Shown here: piece after piece, positions 1-12,113 of the stretch
Layout: every line of letters starts with the position of its first letter
How positions within the stretch are numbered: the stretch's first letter is position 1
Assembly: GCF_044324875.1 (NCBI RefSeq)
Contig: NZ_CP172185.1
Reading direction: 5' to 3' (one strand)
Origin: Escherichia coli
GTDB taxonomy: Bacteria > Pseudomonadota > Gammaproteobacteria > Enterobacterales > Enterobacteriaceae
Length of the DNA stretch: 64,000 nt
The notes under the pieces: model-generated
The model's database searches: none
What the model was told of the DNA's origin: nothing
The model's input: the letters and a program-made list of their open reading frames with translations, nothing else
Program-made: the position numbers and the translations under genes

Positions 1-53
1 CATCATAACTCACCAAACAACCAGTCACCAGTTAAGATACATCAAAAAAAAAT

Positions 54-91
54 TACCCATGGGTATTTACTTTTTGGATACCCATGGGTAT
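54..91. repeat. Two copies of the perfect palindrome TACCCATGGGTA (54-65 and 79-90; second extends to ATACCCATGGGTAT 78-91), centres 25 bp apart, each followed by a T-run
   Basis: Read directly from sequence; dyad symmetry typical of a dimeric DNA-binding protein operator. Confidence 0.6.
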
Positions 92-283
92 ACTTTTTTT
101 CATACCAACCCACCCCGCCCCACAGAACGCAGGGCAATACTTCGAGTTACCAGGCAGTGGTCAGGGGTTAAGTAGCCAGCCCGAGGCGTATGAACATGAC
201 GGCAGGGTTTAACTTTAACTATGCAGCAGGTTTTTGTTCCGCTACCCCGGCGTTAAGGGGAAACAGCACTGAGAGAAATCAGT

Positions 284-502
284 ATGCAGAAGCGAGAACC
301 CGTCATCATCTCGCCAGACTATACCGATGATGAACTTTATGAGTGGATGCGCCGGAAAATTCAGGCTGCGCAGGACCTGAAGTGGGCCAATGAAGCCAGG
401 GCTAAGGAGGCTGAAAATCTGTCAGCTCTGGAGCAGGATATCACCAGGCTGGAAAAAGCAGCGGCATTAAGCATTGCCAGAATGATTACATACCCGCGTT
501 AA
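284..502 (+). CDS. Hypothetical small prophage protein (72 aa), predicted helical/coiled-coil
   Basis: ORF with GAGA-type RBS upstream, co-oriented with prophage early genes; no recognised family. Confidence 0.45.
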   Translation: MQKREPVIISPDYTDDELYEWMRRKIQAAQDLKWANEARAKEAENLSALEQDITRLEKAAALSIARMITYPR

Positions 503-946
503 CAGCTAATCAACAAGGCCAGGGTTGGTAATTAATGACTTCTCCACGGGTGAGGTGGAGTGCGTGCGCCGGACACAGACTGGTTAACGTCGCCTGGAGG
601 CACCAGGCACCGCATCAACAAAGTTCACTTCGGTGATGAAAGGTAAGAGAAAATGTTGAATGTAGCTATTGAAAACCAGTACGGGTGGAATTATAGTGCA
701 CCTGCACCTCATAAAGCGGGTGCCGGGATTGCTACCCCGACGTTCACTAACGCGCATAACCGCGCCCAGGCGGTTTTTTTATGCGTAATGCACAGCCACA
801 TTCAGATTATGGTGGGGCGTGCAGGGCAGCCGCAAGGCTGGCCGGGTTCGTTAGTGACCGGTTGTAGCAACCCTGTACGTCTCACCACCCATGAGATTGC
901 TACCTCCGGTGGTGAGTTAATCAAATTCACTAACGAGGCTGCCATC

Positions 947-1501
947 ATGGCTACTATCCCTACCCTTTCTCACCCTGACATAACCATCAAAAACGGTCGC
1001 GCTGTCACTACGTCTATTGCGATCGCAGAGTTCTTTGGCAAGCGCCATGAACGAGTGCTGGATAAAATTCGCAATCTGGACTGTTCAGCAAAATTCACTG
1101 AGCACAATTTTGTGTCGAGCAAATACACCGACTCAACCGGGCGCAAACTCCCTATGTACCAAATCACCAAAAACGGCTTCGTTTTCCTGGTGATGGGCTT
1201 CACGGGCAAAAAGGCCGCTGCATTCAAGGAAGCCTACATTGCCGAGTTCGACCGCATGGAGGAAGAACTGCGCCGGAATAACACCACACCCGCTGACAAA
1301 ATAATCCCGGGTGATGGCCGCACCCTGGTTATCCGCTTCGACGAACACGGCTACATCAAATTCACCGAAACCGTTCCTGATGGCGCACTGGTCTGTACTC
1401 TGGATACTTTCCGTTTTTATCTGGAAAAGCAGGGATGGACTCTCATAAACCGGGGCGCAATTAAAAATATGACCGTCGAGCAGTTGCTGAGTATTAAATA
1501 G
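947..1501 (+). CDS. Phage regulatory protein, Rha family (about 184 aa)
   Basis: Motif TTSIAIAEFFGKRHERVLDKIRNL typical of the Rha N-terminal domain; GAGG RBS before ATG 947; the track ORF 653-1501 is probably over-extended upstream. Confidence 0.7.
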   Translation: MATIPTLSHPDITIKNGRAVTTSIAIAEFFGKRHERVLDKIRNLDCSAKFTEHNFVSSKYTDSTGRKLPMYQITKNGFVFLVMGFTGKKAAAFKEAYIAEFDRMEEELRRNNTTPADKIIPGDGRTLVIRFDEHGYIKFTETVPDGALVCTLDTFRFYLEKQGWTLINRGAIKNMTVEQLLSIK

Positions 1502-1546
1502 TTTTCTGGAATTTCCTTCATATCACAAATTATTAAGGAGATTATT

Positions 1547-1768
1547 ATGATTGCTCATCACTTCGGAACCGATGAAATACCACGCCAGTGCGTCACTCCC
1601 GGCGATTACGTTATTTACGAAGGCCGGACATATATCGCCTCGGCAAACAATATCGAAAAGCAAAAACTTTATATCCGTGATTTCACTACAAAAACATGCA
1701 TTACTGACCGCATGATTAAAGTCTTCCTCGGTCGTGATGGTTTACCTGTAAAGGCGGTGGCATGGTGA
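1547..1768 (+). CDS. Hypothetical small prophage protein (73 aa)
   Basis: Strong RBS AAGGAG 8 nt before ATG; no recognised family. Confidence 0.5.
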
Positions 1769-3990
1769 GCTGTAATAAATAACTGACCCAATACGACATT
1801 CAGCTTAATAAATACATAAGGGTCGATTCTTATATGCCAGCAATGGCAGGGATTCGCACAACCTTAAAACAGCAATGAGGTTTATCAATGAGCACTGATA
1901 AAGAAACTTTTGCGCTATATTGCGAAGCTAAAAATGACAAAGTCAGAAAACGCCTTGGGATTAAAGGTGGTTTTTACTGGACTACAGCAAAAAAATTATC
2001 TGTTGCCATCTCCCGCTGCATTACCGCAATGGATGATAACGATTATGATGAAGACGACTTTAAAAAACCTGTTCGCGTCCATTTGCCCGTTGTTGATGAC
2101 CTTCCACCGGAAGGCGTGTTTGATACCGAATTCTGTAACCGGTATGAAAAAGGCGGCGAAGATGGCATCACAATGATATTTATCGCGCCTCCGCCATCCG
2201 CGCAGGACAAACCAGCCAGCACTGACAACACCAATGTTAATGGCGAAGACATGACTGAGATTGAGGAGAATATGCTTCTGCCGGTTTCAGGTCAGATTCT
2301 GCCTGTTCGCTGGCTGGCGCAACACGGCGGCGAAAAACCAGTAACGCACGTTTCGCGGGATGAACTGCGCTCATTACATAACGCACAGGAAGAAAAACTT
2401 CCCGCCGTTACCGCGCTGGCCATCTCAAATAAAGCAGCGCAACTCGAACCGCTGGAGATTCGGGATTTGTACAAACTGGTGCGGGACACTGACAAAGTTT
2501 TTCCCGCTCCCGTAAATTCAGACCTGGGACTGATGACCTCCTTCATCGAAGCATACCTGGACGCTGACTACACTGATCGTGGTCTGCTTACAAAAGAGTG
2601 GATGAAAGGAAATCGTGTTTCTCGCATCAGTCGCACACCATCCGGCGCTAACGCTGGCGGCGGTATTCTTACCGATCGCGGCGAAGGTTTTGTGCATGAT
2701 AATGCGTCAATGGCATTCGATGTTGCTACAGGAAAACTGGCTCGTTCGATGGATGTGGATATTTACAGCATGCATCCTTCACATACCAGACGTGTTAACG
2801 AAATTATCGCAGAAAATGATCCCTGTTTCTCCGTCTTCCTTAAGGCTTTTCTGAACATGCCAGGCGGGATGGATTATTCCCGCGCCATCGTGGTTGCCTC
2901 CGTGAAAGAAGCACCGGTTGGTATAGAGGCTATGCCCCACCGCGTCACCGAATACCTGAATAAAGTGCTGACCGAAACCGATCATGCCAACCCTGATCCG
3001 GAAATCGTGGATATTGCCTGCGGTCGTTCCTCTGCACCAATGCCGCAGCGTGTAACAGAAGAAGGAAAACAGGATGATGAAAAAAAACCGCAACCGTCTG
3101 GCGCAATGGCAGATGAACAGGCAACTACTAAAACAGTGGAACCGGATACAACTGAACATCATCCGGACACGCAGACGCTGGATGCTCGGCCGCAGGTGAA
3201 TTCTGTTGATGCGAAATATCAGAAACTGCGGGCAGAACTCCATGAAGCCCGGAAAAACATTCCGCCCCAAAATCCTGTCGACGAAGACAAATTGCTGGCA
3301 ACCTCTCGCGGAGAATTTGCTGAAGGGATTAGCGACCAGAATGATCCGAAATGGGTGAAGGGGATTGAAACCCGCGATTCTGTGAACCAGAATCAGCAAG
3401 AAACGGAACAGAACGACCAGAAAGCGGAACAAAACAGCCCAAATGTGCAACGAAAAGAGCCAAAAGCGAAACAATCCGAACCAGTAGCGCAACAGGAACC
3501 GGAAAAAGTCTGCACCGTCTGCGGTCAGAGCGGTGTCGACAACTGTCCTGATTGTGGCGTGGTGATGGGCGACGCAACATACCAGGAAATGTTCGATGAA
3601 GAGAATCAGCCTGAAGTTCAGGAAAATGATCCAGAGGAAATGGAAGGCTCTGCGCATCAGAACAAGGAGAACTCTGGCGGCAATCAGCATCATGCCAGCG
3701 ATAGTGAAACTGGCGAGACGGCAAATCCCTTAATTAAGATAACCAGTCATCACAAATATAAGTCCACAAGCAAAACGTGGTATCACCTGATGATCGACCT
3801 TGAAACAATGGGAACCAACACCAATGCACCCATAGTAGTTATTGGTGCGGTTTTCTTCGACCCGGAAACAGGGGAAATCGGGCCGGTATTTTATATCGTT
3901 ATCAGCCTGACTGACGCAATGAATACAGGGGCTGTTTGAACCGCCCCGGGAATCCTGGAGACTAAACTCCCTGAGAAAGAGGTAAACAGA

Positions 3991-4317
3991 ATGACTAAAA
4001 ATACTCGTTTTTCCCCCGAAGTCCGTCAGAGGGCGATTCGTATGGTTCTGGAAAGTCAGGGCGAATATGACTCACAGTGGGCGGCAATTTGTTCCATTGC
4101 CCCAAAGATTGGCTGTACACCGGAGACTCTGCGTGTCTGGGTACGCCAGCATGAGCGGGATACCGGAGGCGGTGATGGCGGGCTCACCACCGCTGAACGT
4201 CAGCGTCTGAAAGAGCTGGAACGTGAAAATCGTGAACTGCGCCGCAGTAACGATATCCTTCGCCAGGCTTCCGCTTATTTTGCGAAGGCGGAGTTCGACC
4301 GCCTCTGGAAAAAGTGA
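3991..4317 (+). CDS. IS629 transposase OrfA (108 aa)
   Basis: Recognised IS3-family OrfA sequence; stop overlaps orfB start in ATGA. Confidence 0.9.
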
Positions 4318-5204
4318 TGCCACTGCTGGATAAGCTGCGTAAGCTGTACGGGGTCGGACCGGTATGCAGTGAACTACATATTGCCCCGTCAACGTATTAC
4401 CACTGTCAGCAACAGCGACATCATCCGGATAAACGCAGTGCCCGTGCGCAGCGCGATGACTGGCTGAAGAAAGAGATACTGCGCGTATACGATGGGAATC
4501 ATCAGGTATACGGTGTGCGTAAAGTCTGGCGTCAGTTGTTACGGGAAGGAATCAGGGTAGCCAGATGTACAGTGGCGCGCCTCATGGCGGTTATGGGACT
4601 TGCCGGTGTTCTCCGGGGTAAAAAGGTCCGCACTACCGTCAGCCGGAAAGCCGTTGCCGCAGGCGACCGCGTAAACCGTCAGTTTGTGGCAGAACGTCCT
4701 GACCAGTTGTGGGTGGCTGATTTTACTTACGTCAGCACATGGCAGGGGGTCGTCTATGTGGCGTTCATCATTGATGTGTTTGCCGGATACATCGTGGGGT
4801 GGCGGGTCTCATCGTCTATGGAAACGACATTCGTGCTGGATGCTCTGGAGCAGGCGTTATGGGCCCGTCGACCGTCCGGCACAGTCCATCACAGTGATAA
4901 AGGTTCTCAGTATGTATCGCTGGCCTACACACAGCGGCTTAAGGAAGCCGGATTACTGGCATCAACAGGAAGTACTGGTGACTCGTATGACAACGCGATG
5001 GCGGAGAGCATCAATGGCCTTTACAAAGCGGAGGTAATACACCGTAAGAGCTGGAAAAACCGGACAGAAGTGGAGCTGGCCACACTCACGTGGGTGGACT
5101 GGTATAACAATCGACGATTGCTGGAAAGGCTGGGCCATATCCCACCGGCAGAAGCAGAAAAAGCTTATTATGCTTCCATCGGAAACGATGATCTGGCAGC
5201 CTGA
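4314..5204 (+). CDS. IS629 transposase OrfB (296 aa, DDE integrase-like catalytic domain)
   Basis: IS3-family OrfB; overlaps orfA by 4 nt. Confidence 0.9.
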
Positions 5205-5706
5205 GTTCACAGATAAAACACTCTCCAGGAAACCCGGGGCGGTTCAGTTCCTGATGGTGGCACCATCGAATGGTGGCTGAAGCAGTCCAGCGAAGCCAGA
5301 GCTGCCATTTTAACTGACCAGGTAAAAATGAAAGATGCCCTTTTGCGTTTTCGGGAATTCGTCAATGAACACTCCGATGAAAAATTCGTTCAGGTGTGGG
5401 GTAATGGCGCAACGTTCGATAACGCAATTTTGCGCACCTCATACGAACGTCTGGACATCCCCTGTCCGTGGCATTACAGCAACGATCGTGATGTACGCAC
5501 AATCGTTGAGATGGGGAAAATCACAGACTTCAATGCCAGAAGCGTAATTCCATTCGAAGGCGTGCGCCATAATGCTCTGGATGACGCTCTTCACCAGGCA
5601 AAATACGTAACAGCCGCTATACAAAAACTGATCCCGAATCAGGCTGATTTTTAATGTTCAACAGTCGCCAGTTGTCGTTGCTATTCTGCAACTGGCGCGT
5701 TCCGGA

Positions 5707-5985
5707 GTGATAGCCATGAGCGAACAGTACCTGATAACGCTCGATGAGTGGAAACCAAAACGGTTCAGTCTCCCAATAACAAACACTACCCTGGTGAAAT
5801 ATGGAAAACTAGGATACATCGTTCCAAGACCACAAAAAATTCGTGGGCGTTGGCTGATAGATCGCCGGGCAGTATTTGTTGGGCCAGGTGAAACAGGAAT
5901 TGCGCCGGAAATTCATACTGGCGATGATGATGCACTGAAGGAGATTTTAACTCATGTCACCGAGGCCACGAAAAAACAGCACTGA
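5707..5985 (+). CDS. xis: Prophage excisionase-like protein (92 aa)
   Basis: Small basic ORF directly upstream of and overlapping the integrase start by 32 nt. Confidence 0.6.
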   Translation: MIAMSEQYLITLDEWKPKRFSLPITNTTLVKYGKLGYIVPRPQKIRGRWLIDRRAVFVGPGETGIAPEIHTGDDDALKEILTHVTEATKKQH

Positions 5986-7072
5986 CGTAGCCGGTCTTTA
6001 CGAAAAGTTTGATCGCAGAACTGGCAGGGTTTACTACCAGTATAAAAACCCTGTGACTGGAAAATTTCACGGTCTCGGAACAGACAAATGTAAGGCAGAA
6101 AAAATCGCTTCCACAGCCAATCAGCGAATAGCTGCAGCAGAAGCTGAATATTACATGCGCAAAATTGATGAAAGTCCGTCAGCAACAAAACGTCGGGGTA
6201 TCAGATTAAAGGCATGGGTTGAACGATATCTGAAAATACAGGACACACGACTAAAAAATGGAGATATTGCAGCTACAACCCACAAAGAAAAAGCCCGAAT
6301 GGCTGCATACCTGGTTTCCCGTCTGGGAAACCACCCATTGAAAGAACTGGAAGTAAGAGACTTTGCATTGATACTGGATGAGTGGCTGGATAAAGACATG
6401 GTCAGCACGGCGAGAGTAAACCGTGGATTATGGGTTGATATTTATAAAGAAGCACAGCATGCAGGGGAAGTTCCTCCCGGATGGAATCCTCCGGAGGCTA
6501 CCCGTAAACCGATCCCTAAAGTAAGCAGAGCCAGACTCACCCTGGAAGACTGGCAAAAAATTTACAATGCAACGCCTGAAAGGCACTTTATTCGTAACGC
6601 AATGCTTCTTGCAATTGTTACTGGTCAGCGCCGTGATGACATTTGCCACATGCGTTTTTCAGATGTGTGGAACGAACACTTGCATATCACCCAGGGAAAA
6701 ACCGGAATGCGTCTGGCGTTACCGCTTACACTCCGCTGTGATGCCATTGGGATAACGTTAAAAGAAGTTATTGATGGATGCCGAGACAGAATATTAAGTC
6801 CATACCTAATCCATAGTCGGCACCAGAAACAACCAAAACCGATGAGTAAAGACAACCTGAGCGACTACTTTGCCAAAGCACGGGATCTGGCTGGGATAAT
6901 TCCACCAGCAGGAAAAACTCCTCCCACATTTCATGAACAACGCTCTCTATCAGAACGGCTGTACCGTACGCAGGGTATCGATACAAAAACATTACTGGGA
7001 CATAAAATCCAGGCAACCACCGATCGCTATAACGATACCCGAGGTCAGGAATGGGTTAAGTTGGTTATTTGA
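5954..7072 (+). CDS. int: Prophage tyrosine integrase (372 aa)
   Basis: C-terminal catalytic signature HxxR (HEQR) and terminal Tyr (DRYNDTR); N-terminal arm-binding-like region; lies at the prophage/host junction. Confidence 0.9.
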   Translation: MSPRPRKNSTDVAGLYEKFDRRTGRVYYQYKNPVTGKFHGLGTDKCKAEKIASTANQRIAAAEAEYYMRKIDESPSATKRRGIRLKAWVERYLKIQDTRLKNGDIAATTHKEKARMAAYLVSRLGNHPLKELEVRDFALILDEWLDKDMVSTARVNRGLWVDIYKEAQHAGEVPPGWNPPEATRKPIPKVSRARLTLEDWQKIYNATPERHFIRNAMLLAIVTGQRRDDICHMRFSDVWNEHLHITQGKTGMRLALPLTLRCDAIGITLKEVIDGCRDRILSPYLIHSRHQKQPKPMSKDNLSDYFAKARDLAGIIPPAGKTPPTFHEQRSLSERLYRTQGIDTKTLLGHKIQATTDRYNDTRGQEWVKLVI

Positions 7073-7238
7073 CAAACACCATATGGAATATCCGTCACCA
7101 TCTCAGGAAAAAAGTGTTGTAAAATGCGTGGCCTTGTTTTGGGGAAAAGTTTTGGAGAGATTTTGGAGAAAGGAAAAAATTGAATAAATTCAAAATCCTG
7201 AAAGTGCTCCACCTTATGAATAAAAAGGTGGAACTCGA
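7073..7238 (+). promoter_or_regulatory. attR region with three direct repeats TTTTGGRGA (7137-7145, 7150-7158, 7161-7169) and a short open frame ending ...NKKVELE* that overlaps the potC start like the potB 3' end
   Basis: Repeats read from sequence; the phage/host boundary must lie in this interval because int ends at 7072 and potC starts at 7239. Confidence 0.5.
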
Positions 7239-8033
7239 ATGATCGGTCGACTGCTTCGCGGCGGTTTTATGACCGCTATCTACGCGTACCTGTATATCCC
7301 AATCATTATTTTGATTGTGAACTCCTTTAACAGCTCGCGCTTTGGCATCAACTGGCAGGGTTTTACCACCAAATGGTATAGCCTGCTGATGAACAACGAC
7401 AGCCTGTTACAGGCAGCGCAGCATTCACTAACAATGGCGGTGTTTTCGGCGACGTTTGCTACGCTTATCGGTTCACTGACGGCAGTTGCGCTGTACCGTT
7501 ATCGCTTTCGTGGTAAGCCGTTCGTTAGCGGAATGCTGTTTGTGGTGATGATGTCACCAGATATCGTGATGGCGATTTCGCTGCTGGTGCTGTTTATGCT
7601 GCTGGGTATTCAGCTTGGCTTCTGGTCGCTGCTGTTCTCGCATATCACCTTCTGCCTGCCATTTGTGGTGGTGACAGTGTATTCGCGCCTGAAAGGTTTT
7701 GACGTGCGAATGCTGGAAGCGGCGAAAGATCTCGGTGCCAGCGAATTTACCATTCTGCGAAAAATCATTCTGCCACTGGCAATGCCAGCGGTAGCGGCGG
7801 GCTGGGTGTTAAGCTTTACCCTGTCGATGGACGATGTAGTAGTTTCTTCGTTCGTCACCGGACCAAGCTATGAAATTCTGCCGTTAAAAATTTATTCGAT
7901 GGTCAAAGTCGGCGTATCGCCGGAAGTTAACGCGCTGGCAACCATATTACTGGTGCTGTCGCTGGTGATGGTAATTGCCAGCCAGCTTATTGCTCGTGAT
8001 AAAACGAAAGGTAACACAGGGGACGTTAAATGA
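7239..8033 (+). CDS. potC: Spermidine/putrescine ABC transporter permease PotC
   Basis: 264-aa ORF recognised as E. coli PotC. Confidence 0.95.
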   Translation: MIGRLLRGGFMTAIYAYLYIPIIILIVNSFNSSRFGINWQGFTTKWYSLLMNNDSLLQAAQHSLTMAVFSATFATLIGSLTAVALYRYRFRGKPFVSGMLFVVMMSPDIVMAISLLVLFMLLGIQLGFWSLLFSHITFCLPFVVVTVYSRLKGFDVRMLEAAKDLGASEFTILRKIILPLAMPAVAAGWVLSFTLSMDDVVVSSFVTGPSYEILPLKIYSMVKVGVSPEVNALATILLVLSLVMVIASQLIARDKTKGNTGDVK

Positions 8034-9076
8034 AAAAATGGTCACGCCACCTGCTCGCGGCGGGTGCTCTGGCACTGGGCATGAGCGCCGCTCACGCCGA
8101 TGACAACAACACGCTGTATTTTTACAACTGGACCGAGTACGTGCCACCAGGACTGCTTGAACAGTTCACCAAAGAAACCGGTATTAAGGTTATCTATTCG
8201 ACTTACGAGTCGAACGAAACCATGTATGCCAAGCTGAAAACGTACAAAGACGGTGCCTATGACCTGGTGGTTCCTTCAACCTATTACGTCGATAAAATGC
8301 GTAAAGAAGGGATGATCCAGAAGATCGACAAGTCGAAGTTAAGCAATTTCAGCAACCTCGATCCAGACATGCTCAATAAGCCGTTTGACCCGAATAACGA
8401 CTACTCCATTCCGTATATCTGGGGTGCGACGGCGATTGGTGTTAATGGTGATGCGGTGGATCCCAAATCCGTTACCAGCTGGGCCGATCTGTGGAAGCCT
8501 GAGTACAAAGGCAGCCTGCTGCTGACCGACGATGCCCGTGAAGTGTTCCAGATGGCACTGCGTAAGCTGGGCTACTCCGGTAACACCACCGATCCGAAAG
8601 AGATTGAAGCTGCATACAACGAGCTGAAAAAACTGATGCCAAACGTCGCGGCGTTTAACTCCGATAACCCGGCGAACCCGTATATGGAAGGCGAAGTTAA
8701 CCTCGGCATGATCTGGAACGGTTCTGCTTTCGTTGCACGCCAGGCGGGTACGCCAATTGATGTGGTGTGGCCGAAAGAAGGCGGCATTTTCTGGATGGAC
8801 AGCCTGGCGATCCCGGCAAATGCCAAAAACAAAGAAGGCGCGCTGAAATTGATCAACTTCCTGCTGCGCCCAGATGTGGCAAAACAGGTTGCTGAAACTA
8901 TCGGTTATCCAACGCCAAACCTTGCGGCGCGTAAGCTGTTAAGTCCGGAAGTGGCGAACGATAAAACGCTCTACCCGGATGCTGAAACCATTAAAAATGG
9001 TGAATGGCAGAATGACGTTGGCGCAGCCAGCAGCATTTATGAAGAGTATTATCAGAAGCTGAAAGCAGGACGTTAA
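8030..9076 (+). CDS. potD: Spermidine/putrescine periplasmic binding protein PotD
   Basis: 348-aa ORF with signal peptide, recognised as PotD. Confidence 0.95.
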   Translation: MKKWSRHLLAAGALALGMSAAHADDNNTLYFYNWTEYVPPGLLEQFTKETGIKVIYSTYESNETMYAKLKTYKDGAYDLVVPSTYYVDKMRKEGMIQKIDKSKLSNFSNLDPDMLNKPFDPNNDYSIPYIWGATAIGVNGDAVDPKSVTSWADLWKPEYKGSLLLTDDAREVFQMALRKLGYSGNTTDPKEIEAAYNELKKLMPNVAAFNSDNPANPYMEGEVNLGMIWNGSAFVARQAGTPIDVVWPKEGGIFWMDSLAIPANAKNKEGALKLINFLLRPDVAKQVAETIGYPTPNLAARKLLSPEVANDKTLYPDAETIKNGEWQNDVGAASSIYEEYYQKLKAGR

Positions 9077-9133
9077 TTCAGCAAGCGGGCGGTGGTATTA
9101 CCGCCCGTTTTTTATTTAGCAAGGATGTGGCTA

Positions 9134-9595
9134 ATGAGTCAGGACAGTAGAGTTTTCTTTCGTATATTCCTCGGTATCGGTCTGGTACTGATCCTCATTT
9201 CTGTTGTTGTCTTTTATAACCAGTTCACCTATAGCAAAGACGCGATTCATACTGAAGGCGTCATTGTTGATACCGTCTGGCACTCCAGTCATTCTCATCG
9301 CACGGGTAAAAATGGTTCGTGGTATCCCGTCGTTGCCTTTCGACCGACGCCTGATTACACGCTAATTTTCAATTCGAGTATCGGCAGCGATTTTTATGAA
9401 GACAGCGAAGGCGATAAAGTTAATGTTTATTATTCTCCAGGGCATCCTGAAAAGGCTGAGATAAATAACCCGTGGGTTAATTTTTTTAAATGGGGGTTTG
9501 TCGGCATTATGGGCGTTATTTTTATCGCCGTCGGTTTATTAATCAGTATGCCCTCCTCTAAAAAGTCACGCAGGAAACGGAAGTCCCGTCCATGA
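9134..9595 (+). CDS. ymfA: Inner membrane protein YmfA (DUF3592)
   Basis: Recognised E. coli YmfA; start chosen to give 153 aa (track ORF starts at 9092). Confidence 0.8.
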
Positions 9596-10294
9596 AAAAA
9601 ATCATAATACTGCTCAGTTTACTGATACTGCTGCCTCTGACAGCAACCAGTAAGCCCTTAATCCCAATAATGAAGACACTTTTTACGGATGTTACAGGTA
9701 CTGTACCGGATGCTGAGGAGATTGCGCGGAAAGCGGAGCTTTTTCGTCAACAAACCGGGATTGCGCCGTTTATCGTGGTTGTACCTGACGTTAATGAAGC
9801 AAGCTTCAGGCAAAATGGCAAAGCGATGCTGGCGCATGCGTCATCTTCATTGAGTGATGTAAAAGGCAGCGTCCTGTTACTTTTTACCACCCGCGAGCCA
9901 CGGTTAATTATGATAACCAACGGCCAGGTTGAAAGCGGTCTGGACGATAAACATCTCGGCCTTCTGGTTGAAAATCACACTCATGCTTATTTACATGCGG
10001 ACCTCTGGTATCAGGGAATCAATAATGCATTGGCTGTTTTACAAGCACAGATATTAAAACAACCGACGCCGCCACTGACATATTATCCGCATCCCGGACA
10101 ACAGCAGGAGAATGATCCTCCCGGCAGTACCACGATATTAGGTCTTTTTGCCTGGGCAGTTGCATTCATCTTCTTTACTGCATTTTTTTACTACACGACG
10201 CGCCTTAATTATGCATTAAAGTTTGCAGTGGCGATGACTATTGCCAATATGGGTTATCAGGCTTTATGTTTGTACATCGGGTAATGACTCCAAC

Positions 10295-10798
10295 TTATTG
10301 ATAGTGTTTTATGTTCAGATAATGCCCGATGACTTTGTCATGCAGCTCCACCGATTTTGAGAACGACAGCGACTTCCGTCCCAGCCGTGCCAGGTGCTGC
10401 CTCAGATTCAGGTTATGCCGCTCAATTCGCTGCGTATATCGCTTGCTGATTACGTGCAGCTTTCCCTTCAGGCGGGATTCATACAGTGGCCAGCCATCCG
10501 TCATCCATATCACCACGTCAAAGGGTGACAGCAGGCTCATAAGACGCCCCAGCGTCGCCATAGTGCGTTCACCGAATACGTGCGCAACAACCGTCTTCCG
10601 GAGCCTGTCATACGCGTAAAACAGCCAGCGCTGGCGCGATTTAGCCCCGACATAGCCCCACTGTTCGTCCATTTCCGCGCAGACGATGACGTCACTGCCC
10701 GGCTGTATGCGCGAGGTTACCGACTGCGGCCTGAGTTTTTTAAGTGACGTAAAATCGTGTTGAGGCCAACGCCCATAATGCGGGCAGTTGCCCGGCAT
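10295..10798 (-). CDS. insB: IS1 InsB reading frame (expressed as InsAB' by frameshift)
   Basis: 167-aa ORF recognised as IS1 InsB. Confidence 0.9.
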
Positions 10799-10992
10799 CC
10801 AACGCCATTCATGGCCATATCAATGATTTTCTGGTGCGTACCGGGTTGAGAAGCGGTGTAAGTGAACTGCAGTTGCCATGTTTTACGGCAGTGAGAGCAG
10901 AGATAGCGCTGATGTCCGGCGGTGCTTTTGCCGTTACGCACCACCCCGTCAGTAGCTGAACAGGAGGGACAGCTGATAGAAACAGAAGCCAC
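10717..10992 (-). CDS. insA: IS1 InsA
   Basis: 91-aa ORF recognised as IS1 InsA. Confidence 0.95.
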
Positions 10993-11159
10993 TGGAGCAC
11001 CTCAAAAACACCATCATACACTAAATCAGTAAGTTGGCAGCATCACCTGTACATCGATAATAGCTTTGCGATTACCAGAATATCGCCGCTCTGGGCAGGG
11101 CTGATTGGTGTCTGTACGTTTATTGCCGCGTTGTTATTGACGAGTAAACGGTAAAAGAG

Positions 11160-11290
11160 GCAGTAAAGTGTGCGTTTATTATGCCGGATGCGGCGCGAAC
11201 GCCTTATCTGGCCCACAAAACCCGCAAATTCAATTAATTGCGTCCCCTTGTAGGCCTGATAAGCGTAGCGCATCAGGCAATGCTTCCTGC
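11160..11290. repeat. REP/BIME-type palindromic units between ycfZ and cobB
   Basis: GCCGGATGCGGCG...CGCCTTATC and GTAGGCCTGATAAGCG...CGCATCAGGC motifs. Confidence 0.7.
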
Positions 11291-11291
11291 T

Positions 11292-12113
11292 TTATAAGCC
11301 CTTCAGCAACTTTTCAACAAACTCTGGCACCACCTGGCTTGCCGGGCCGTAATATTTCTCGGCAAATTCATTACCGACCTGGCTTGGTTCAAGATTCAGT
11401 TCCACGGTGTGTGCGCCATGCAGTTTCGCTTCGTGAACAAACCCAGCCGCCGGATAAACATGCCCTGATGTACCAATGGCAATGAAAATATCGGCCATTG
11501 ACAACGCCATATAAATTTCATCCATGCCGAGTGGCATTTCGCCAAACCAAACGACGTGCGGGCGCAAGGGTGCCGGGAACTGGCAACAATGGCATTTATC
11601 TTCTGGCGTAACGTCTCCGGTCCAGTCGAGAACCTGACCACTTTGCGAACAGCGAACTTTCAGCAGTTCCCCATGCATATGAATGACATTGGTATTACCT
11701 GCGCGTTCATGCAGGTTGTCGATATTCTGCGTCACCAGCAAAAAGCGATCGCCGAGGGCGTCTTGCAGTTTAGCCAGCGCAAGATGCGCGGCGTTAGGCT
11801 GAATTTCTGGCTGCTGTAGCTGTCGACGACGGGCGTTATAAAACGCTTGCACCAGTTCAGGATCGCGATCGAAACCTTCCGGCGTTGCCACATCTTCAAC
11901 CCGATGTTCTTCCCACAGGCCATCTGCGGCGCGAAAGGTACGAATACCTGATTCCGCAGAAATCCCTGCCCCTGTCAGTACGAGTACTCTTGGTTTTTCC
12001 ATTGCTTCCGGCACCACTTTATCTCTGAAAAAAATACGCTGACGCAAACGCTCGCGCAGACGGCGTTTATTTTTACGAAAACGACTTAACCGATGACCCC
12101 GACGCGACAGCAT
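11292..12113 (-). CDS. cobB: NAD-dependent protein deacylase (sirtuin) CobB
   Basis: 273-aa ORF recognised as CobB. Confidence 0.95.

Follow-up and report, generated by a model that had tools for sequence, protein, structure and literature searches.

Two small open reading frames beside rha in an Escherichia coli prophage are very probably ydfC and kil/kilR of a Rac/Qin-like early-left operon

What are the two small open reading frames that flank a rha gene near the left end of a 64,000-nucleotide stretch of Escherichia coli DNA (contig NZ_CP172185.1, assembly GCF_044324875.1; the window below)? The initial annotation, made from the letters of the sequence, recognised no family for either of them and placed both in the late part of the leftward early operon of a lambdoid prophage, among accessory genes. 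The list of open reading frames confirms that ORF1 (284-502, + strand, 72 aa) and ORF2 (1547-1768, + strand, 73 aa) exist at these coordinates and lengths, both with an ATG start, and the strong AAGGAG ribosome-binding site noted for the 73-aa frame was found at 1535-1540, 6 nt ahead of its ATG at 1547. However, profile searches give named families for both, YdfC/phrog_1744 for ORF1 and Kil/KilR (NF008465) for ORF2, and the two frames are thus already known, named prophage genes. It is proposed, with a probability of about 0.9, that ORF1 is ydfC and ORF2 is kil/kilR, and that both belong to the early-left operon backbone of a Rac/Qin-like lambdoid prophage; no evidence contradicting the two identities was found.

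284-502, + strand: ydfC, 72 aa, leading gene of the operon, predicted small coiled-coil protein (identity to K-12 YdfC, phrog_1744)
1547-1768, + strand: kil (kilR homologue), 73 aa (NF008465, phrog_294, identity to Rac KilR)

The relatives used for comparison were the ydfC locus of E. coli strain 135 (L001), a further related locus (L002), the Qin and Rac prophages of K-12, and phage Evi. Comparison with homologues in phage Evi and in other E. coli prophages gives a pN/pS of 0.32-0.38 for ORF1 and 0.17-0.28 for ORF2. Because of these low values and, for ORF1, also because an exhaustive profile search at E<=1e-3 returned 93 cluster representatives of its family, both frames are genuine genes under purifying selection, not chance frames. 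Some part of a 1.75-kb query (150-1900 of the window) is matched by 4245 of 5426 complete E. coli genomes, and the whole arrangement occurs in only 17 of the 5426, at 93.6% identity or less. As a discovery, the two frames matter little, ydfC being a catalogued y-gene in many E. coli genomes; the main by-products of the analysis are a corrected anatomy of the region called rha and a sharper description of the YdfC family.

The identity of ORF2 is given by its match to the NCBIfam model NF008465, "FtsZ inhibitor protein", over residues 1-73 of 73 (149.9 bits against a curated NCBI cut-off of 92 bits, E 1.5e-44) and to phrog_294, "Kil protein for bacterial septation inhibition". It is as long as KilR of the K-12 Rac prophage (b1352, 73 aa) and 88% identical to it, ungapped over all 73 residues, with nine substitutions. 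The C-terminal tail is full length and differs from that of K-12 KilR only by E71V and S72A, both of which fall in the last three residues. In Rac and in the window alike, the gene lies upstream of a recE-type exonuclease gene, which places ORF2 within a Rac-like early-left operon. The surroundings differ in part: upstream of kil the window carries isrK-C4-rha where kilS and sieB are annotated in Rac and, unlike in Rac, neither ydaE nor racC stands between kil and the exonuclease gene.

The kilR gene has been under study since the 1990s. Toxicity on plasmid expression, which the initial annotation had suggested as a test, is the published phenotype of KilR, the family of ORF2, and the K-12 protein inhibits FtsZ and MreB (PMC12482147). 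At a low level, KilR disrupts the Z-ring and cells form filaments, which is suppressed by extra FtsZ; at a high level, MreB is mislocalised and cells become lemon-shaped (PMC12482147). The 12-residue C-terminal tail is essential for toxicity in a length-dependent manner, and the identity of its last three residues is unimportant, as their replacement with three alanines leaves KilR functional (PMC12482147). By its 88% identity to the K-12 protein, the 73-aa Kil of the window would, after derepression of the operon, block Z-ring formation, and larger amounts of it would block MreB-dependent elongation as well. Its action, as judged from K-12 KilR, would end in filamentation, rounding and growth arrest, and would need the 12-residue C-terminal tail. 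In Rac, the repressor and Rho/NusG-dependent termination together silence kilR (PMC12482147). The λ Kil protein (PF06301) is likewise a small early-left protein that blocks FtsZ-dependent division. However, ORF2 has no match to PF06301 at E<=1, and the effects of KilR are distinct from those of λ Kil (PMC12482147); λ Kil is an analogue of ORF2, not a demonstrated member of its family.

ORF1 is 93% identical (67 of 72 residues) to YdfC of the K-12 Qin prophage (b1573), which also has 72 residues and whose gene also follows that of a DicA-like repressor. At the DNA level, ORF1 does not differ at all from the gene that RefSeq calls "protein YdfC" in strain 135 of E. coli (L001). It matches phrog_1744, a family of unknown function, with E 6.5e-38 over positions 1-68 of 68; no family was found for it in Pfam, NCBIfam or PADLOC. 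The family reaches beyond E. coli to Citrobacter, Klebsiella, Salmonella, Serratia and Kluyvera and is Enterobacterales-wide. The source names shown for its members are "protein YdfC" or generic ones such as "hypothetical protein". Some members bear extra C-terminal domains, which match only unnamed PHROG families and, in Pfam, nothing above noise. The y-ome paper of 2024 lists YdfC as uncharacterised (PMC11551758), and reviews mention ydfC solely as the mRNA whose 3' UTR gives DicF (PMC9438474). The sole experimental paper on YdfC in the literature concerns a YdfC-GFP fusion evolved in yeast; no activity was reported for wild-type YdfC, and the study is therefore silent on the native function.

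Where in the operon do the two genes stand? The left end of the window lies about 22 nt past the stop codon of the repressor gene, which is itself off the window, and the following elements are predicted directly downstream of it.

54-65 and 79-90, no strand assigned: two copies of the palindrome TACCCATGGGTA, with an A-run before and a T-run after; putative early-left operators
66-94, + strand: predicted early-left promoter (PL or PdicB equivalent), TTTACT-17-TATACT, 9 of 12 consensus matches

The two copies of TACCCATGGGTA bracket the promoter-like site, the position of which agrees with that of the promoter region found after dicA in K-12. Promoter and operators at 54-94 remain putative, as predictions from consensus matching and from the analogy to K-12, and the palindrome pair with its A-run and T-run could instead fold as a terminator of the upstream repressor gene. 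In L002, too, the TACCCATGGGTA element comes after the gene for the repressor. The repressor of L001 is a different one, and the operator region of that locus differs in sequence, but its downstream leader is the one seen in the window. The start of ydfC is about 180 nt from the predicted transcription start, and ydfC is the first operon gene in the window. The placement in an early-left operon of a lambdoid prophage carrying accessory genes is therefore upheld, but not the assignment of ORF1 to its late part, since ydfC is promoter-proximal. No N-like arginine-rich frame was found between promoter and ydfC in a large group of Enterobacterales lambdoid prophages. A structured RNA of the put or nut type was also considered for the leader and the spacer, and rejected: the folding z-score is +0.93 for 100-290 and -0.47 for 500-700, and an Rfam search of leader and spacer gave nothing but implausible miRNA matches on palindromes.

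Compared with L002 and Qin, the window differs in two places. The genes ydfA and ydfB are missing at a junction after GGGGAAA, near 262, and dicF and dicB at a junction near 574-580; no ydfA or ydfB frame and no DicF match were found in 1-8000 of the window by the frame list and Rfam. The first ~70 nt of the ydfC 3' UTR are common to Qin and the window. Where Qin has ydfA, ydfB, dicF and dicB, the window lacks them, ydfC comes first and isrK-C4-rha-kil follows, and from the aligned sequences the operon of the window reads as a mosaic variant relative to the ydfABC-dicF-dicB-ydfD (dicBF) operon of Qin. The dicBF layout is thus a trait of Qin and not of the YdfC protein family. In phage Evi, ydfC and Kil lie within one operon, with other genes and DicF between them. 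Since Evi and the window differ between ydfC and kil, both genes are considered a conserved backbone flanking an exchangeable slot.

More distant members of the YdfC family have a similar setting. Six were looked up, five of which gave loci with upstream sequence, 13 loci in total. In 13 of 13, the YdfC homologue is downstream of and co-oriented with a LexA-like, CI-type repressor; it adjoins the repressor in nine and is separated from it in four by one to three called genes on either strand. Wherever a Pfam match was recorded, the Cro and CII-type genes are found across the repressor from ydfC. A convergent gene of unknown function overlaps the 3' end of the ydfC homologue. In every locus examined (L001, L002, K-12 and the distant members) ydfC stands first or nearly first in the early-left operon. 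Few early genes of these prophages keep their place as consistently, and YdfC is a tractable target among the y-genes.

The slot between ydfC and kil holds the gene that had been called rha. Its membership in the Rha family stands, but not its extent: the mechanical frame runs from 653 to 1501, the RefSeq call on L001 also begins at 653, and the 5' third of this frame holds isrK and C4.

669-697, + strand: promoter-like TTGAAA-17-TATAGT, 10 of 12 matches, just upstream of isrK
704-780, + strand: IsrK-like sRNA (Rfam RF01394, 62.7 bits; gathering score 50)
726-735 (a1) and 741-752 (b1), + strand: upstream C4 target sites, inside IsrK, complementary to C4 loops
758-775, + strand: IsrK terminator hairpin, within the IsrK-like sRNA
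805-892, + strand: C4 antisense RNA of the P1/P7 immI type (Rfam RF01695, 78.2 bits; gathering score 45)
895-910 (a2) and 926-936 (b2), + strand: downstream C4 target sites, complementary to C4 loops
947-1501, + strand: rha (Rha family, antirepressor-like), probable start ATG 947 (Phage_pRha, E 1.2e-30; TIGR02681)

One C4 loop (848-860) pairs with 741-752 and 927-936, and the other (857-873) with 726-735 and 897-910; b2 adjoins a GAGG Shine-Dalgarno sequence at 935-938, ahead of ATG 947. In the translated frame 653-1501, Pfam gives Phage_ASH at residues 14-108 and Phage_pRha at residues 119-204. An alignment with three related loci separates the two parts. In 653-946, substitutions by codon position number 26/36/34, without bias, and they cluster in the C4 loops and the four targets, co-varying between loci (L001, L002), whereas the rha part has 24/23/41, an excess at third positions. 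Because of the IsrK and C4 RNAs, the co-variation of loops and targets and the lack of codon bias in 653-946, ATG 947 is most likely the start of rha, and the "Ash" extension is most likely a translation of RNA genes. The calls of 282-283 aa as "Rha family" and the N-terminal Phage_ASH match would then also be translations of the IsrK/C4 RNA genes, as the RNA-type co-variation and the absence of codon-position bias there suggest. The rha product itself is of the Rha family, with weaker PHROG matches to the Ant and anti-repressor families.

Judged from its sequence features, the isrK-C4-rha stretch is identified as a putative antirepressor cassette of the P1 immI / Gifsy-1 isrK-anrP type. As in P1/P7 immI (c4 RNA-icd-ant) and Gifsy-1 (isrK-orf45-anrP), IsrK and C4 are present, both above the Rfam thresholds, with two targets upstream and two downstream of C4, the last abutting the ribosome-binding site of rha. 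In Gifsy-1, isrK has its own promoter, and IsrK turns on translation of the downstream antirepressor-like gene of isrK-orf45-anrP (PMC4825925). Unlike in P1 immI and Gifsy-1, no separate icd- or orf45-like frame is established in the window, and the C4 cassette lies within an early-left operon beside kil; the downstream gene is of the Rha family, whereas that of P1 is Ant. An Stx2a phage carries the same isrK-C4-rha unit followed by a diverged Kil homologue. For the Rac sRNA KilS as a possible relative of C4/IsrK, no Rfam match was found in Rac at gathering thresholds.

With the genes identified, the remaining question is what YdfC does. The family shares the N-terminal motif M-x-K-x-E-P-x-I-I-A-x-G-x-S/T-x-D/E-E-L-x-x-W-M-x-x-K, with W21 invariant, K25 nearly invariant and S/T-x-x-E as a helix N-cap. 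A heptad pattern follows the N-cap, with hydrophobic periodicity peaking at 3.5, and homologues down to 22% identity keep W21, P6, K25, L32, I53 and the heptads. Structure prediction, which had been suggested as a check on the small frames, gives for the ORF1 monomer one long helix at 15-69 (AF2, pLDDT 85.7). When two copies are joined by a linker, residues 7-9 of both copies form the only two β strands and the N-terminal pLDDT rises from 55 to 80; this tandem model relies on a linker hack, has a mean pLDDT of 70 and was reached at that quality in only two of five models. It is proposed, with moderate confidence, that YdfC would be a parallel coiled-coil dimer with a helix at about 15-60/69 and a small N-terminal ribbon. 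Structure searches gave generic coiled coils only. With Foldseek, the monomer model had no PDB match and a best BFVD E-value of 6.8. A sequence-profile search of the PDB with YdfC returned only designed antiparallel coiled coils, a reflection of composition. The alignment, the conserved motif and the predicted dimer define a target for work on the E. coli y-ome.

A tentative mechanism can be outlined from these data. YdfC might be a non-toxic small protein made immediately early, probably a parallel coiled-coil dimer capped by the conserved N-terminal motif. Identical ydfC genes stand behind different repressor/operator sets in the window and in L001, and the cognate repressor is therefore a less likely partner of YdfC than a conserved host component; tentatively, YdfC would bind such a component, conserved in Enterobacterales, and not the phage's own repressor. 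A further, unlikely reading is that YdfC represents an unrecognised class of immediate-early regulator, either a CIII-like inhibitor of FtsH or a modulator of Rho/NusG-dependent termination, of the kind that silences kil-containing operons. If true, either role would tie YdfC functionally to the downstream kil.

The more specific proposal that YdfC is the functional counterpart of λ CIII, inhibiting FtsH and so stabilising a CII-type regulator (YdaT or Phage_CP76), is improbable as well. λ CIII (PF02061) and YdfC are both small amphipathic-helix proteins encoded in the PL operon of phages with a CII-type regulator. Such a gene was found to the right of cro in every related phage sampled: YdaT, which we take to be CII-like, in L001 and L002, and Phage_CP76 in three of the distant loci (L008, L015, L017). 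Among the called genes of the 4-5 kb flanks or short contigs, there was no Pfam Lambda_CIII match, as would be expected if YdfC filled the place of CIII. Hhalign pairs residues 13-28 of YdfC (YTDDELYEWMRRKIQA) with the CIII core (CPSESLLERITRKLRD); however, this single comparison falls short of significance (probability 0.3%, E 0.21), ten YdfC family members gave no PF02061 match even at E<=10, and the invariant or nearly invariant CIII residues G7, G12, R21, T23, G29 and W30 are without counterparts in YdfC. YdfC is also longer, with a helix of 45-55 residues and another conserved motif. Homology of YdfC to λ CIII was therefore rejected on the hhalign probability and the missing PF02061 match, and the proposal is retained as a weak functional rival only.

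It was also considered that one or both frames encode novel toxins or phage-exclusion factors of an undescribed family. This is decidedly improbable. Proteins of the Kil family are toxic (PMC12482147), an accessory position in the early-left operon is compatible with such a role, and the uncharacterised status of YdfC leaves room for exclusion. However, both families are named and widespread, as the 4245 of 5426 complete E. coli genomes matching within the query indicate, neither frame matches any PADLOC defence model, and K-12 YdfC is non-toxic in its operon context: induction of ydfABC without dicF and dicB caused neither toxicity nor a growth defect (PMC5069750).

Even less probable is a direct action on DNA or on the repressor, with YdfC either a small DNA-binding protein (a ribbon-plus-helix dimer) or a repressor-inactivating regulator resembling P1 Coi that locks in lytic development. 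P1 Coi is similar in size to YdfC, ydfC is the first gene under repressor control, and the tandem model predicts a two-stranded N-terminal ribbon with helices, as a ribbon-plus-helix protein would have. Against this, an identical YdfC is encoded behind the different repressors and operators of the window and L001, and the family co-occurs with both DicA-like and LexA-like S24 repressors. In the ribbon, the residues are hydrophobic (I8, I9), with an acidic D/E cluster after them, and both features are untypical of DNA-reading ribbons. YdfC matched no RHH or HTH family.

The weakest proposal, that ydfC is important chiefly at the RNA level, its frame being a translated spacer or 5' scaffold with a functionless peptide and with regulatory sRNAs produced from the 3' UTR (DicF in Qin, IsrK/C4 in the window), draws on the processing of DicF from the ydfC 3' UTR in K-12 (PMC9438474, PMC5069750) and on an sRNA gene after ydfC in the window, L002 and Evi, but it is hardly credible given the protein-level selection on ydfC (pN/pS 0.32-0.38), the residues and heptads retained at 22% identity, the promoter-like site that the window IsrK has of its own, and the distant YdfC loci without an Rfam sRNA downstream. 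A constant pairing of YdfC with a downstream sRNA was likewise rejected, as none of seven distant loci had an Rfam match downstream of the YdfC homologue.

The preferred reading, ydfC and kil/kilR as backbone of an early-left operon, includes the layout of the rest of the locus. This layout was read from the annotated L001 and L002, K-12 Qin and Rac, and phage Evi. In L001 and L002, the order is cro-side genes leftwards, HTH repressor, ydfC, Rha, kil, RecE-like exonuclease, excisionase, integrase. The window very likely has the repressor (off its left end), promoter and operators, ydfC, isrK-C4-rha, kil, an IS-split recE-like exonuclease gene, xis and int, with the right-hand part as follows.

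1888-5654, + strand: RecE-like / 3'-5' exonuclease gene, interrupted by an IS3-family element
3991-4317 and 4314-5204: IS3-family insertion ORFs, within the exonuclease gene
4272-4388: ALIL pseudoknot (Rfam), in the region of the IS3-family insertion
5707-5985: ORF at the excisionase position (label from position and L001 annotation)
5954-7072: ORF at the integrase position (label from position and L001 annotation)

With an IS inside its exonuclease gene, the prophage has undergone at least partial decay. The host chromosome that follows the integrase on the right is E. coli/Shigella-like, with up to 98.3% identity to E. coli genomes, and bears IS1.

The Pfam Phage_ASH match coincides exactly with the third of the annotated rha ORF that holds two RNA genes (653-946).

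704-780: IsrK sRNA, in the 5′-most third of the ORF annotated as rha (653-1501)
805-892: C4 antisense RNA, within the same third

Substitutions in 653-946 show no codon-position bias and are concentrated in the C4 loops and C4 targets. Taken with the RNA genes at this place, this makes the Ash "domain" of the window look like translated RNA genes. The true start of rha is probably the ATG at 947. The loop sequences of C4 and the four sites that they target were compared with those of two annotated relatives, L001 (E. coli strain 135) and L002.

Window: 726-752, 848-873 and 895-936
L001: 6504-6800
L002: 5249-5545

Three sequence types were found, one shared by the window and the Stx2a-converting phage Stx2_131990 (L014), the others represented by L001 and L002. 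Despite the differences between types, the loops of every locus are still complementary to their own targets, which suggests distinct antisense specificities, like those of phages P1 and P7. In L014, a diverged 70-aa Kil homologue (3458-3670) again lies immediately after the isrK-C4-rha unit, so isrK, C4, rha and kil seem to move together as four elements. The GenBank record of this phage carries no annotation at 3458-3670.

The ~180-nt leader upstream of ydfC (103-283) is nearly identical behind different immunity regions (L001, L002) and precedes either ydfC or ydfA, depending on the locus. Neither a thermodynamic structure signal (z = +0.93) nor a credible Rfam match was found for it. A 46-codon ORF (190-330) overlaps the leader and the ydfC start. 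In distant relatives, the ydfC homologue is overlapped at its 3′ end by a convergent gene of 66-217 aa, which has no counterpart in the window and, in these six loci, no Pfam family.

L005: 2636-3082
L007: 1516-2037
L008: 5158-5811
L011: 261-707
L015: 4167-4613
L017: 4422-4622

The RecE-like/Rv2179c-like 3′-5′ exonuclease gene (1888-5654) is interrupted by an IS3-family element, and thus the prophage is at least partly degraded.

3991-4317 and 4314-5204: IS3-family element ORFs, inside the exonuclease gene
4272-4388: ALIL frameshift pseudoknot of this element

The flanking chromosome (9000-12000) is the cobB/ymfA/potD region, bearing IS1. Its identity to E. coli genomes reaches 98.3% at most, whereas the prophage segment does not exceed 93.6% to any complete E. 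coli genome. The host is likely an IS-rich E. coli or Shigella-like strain.
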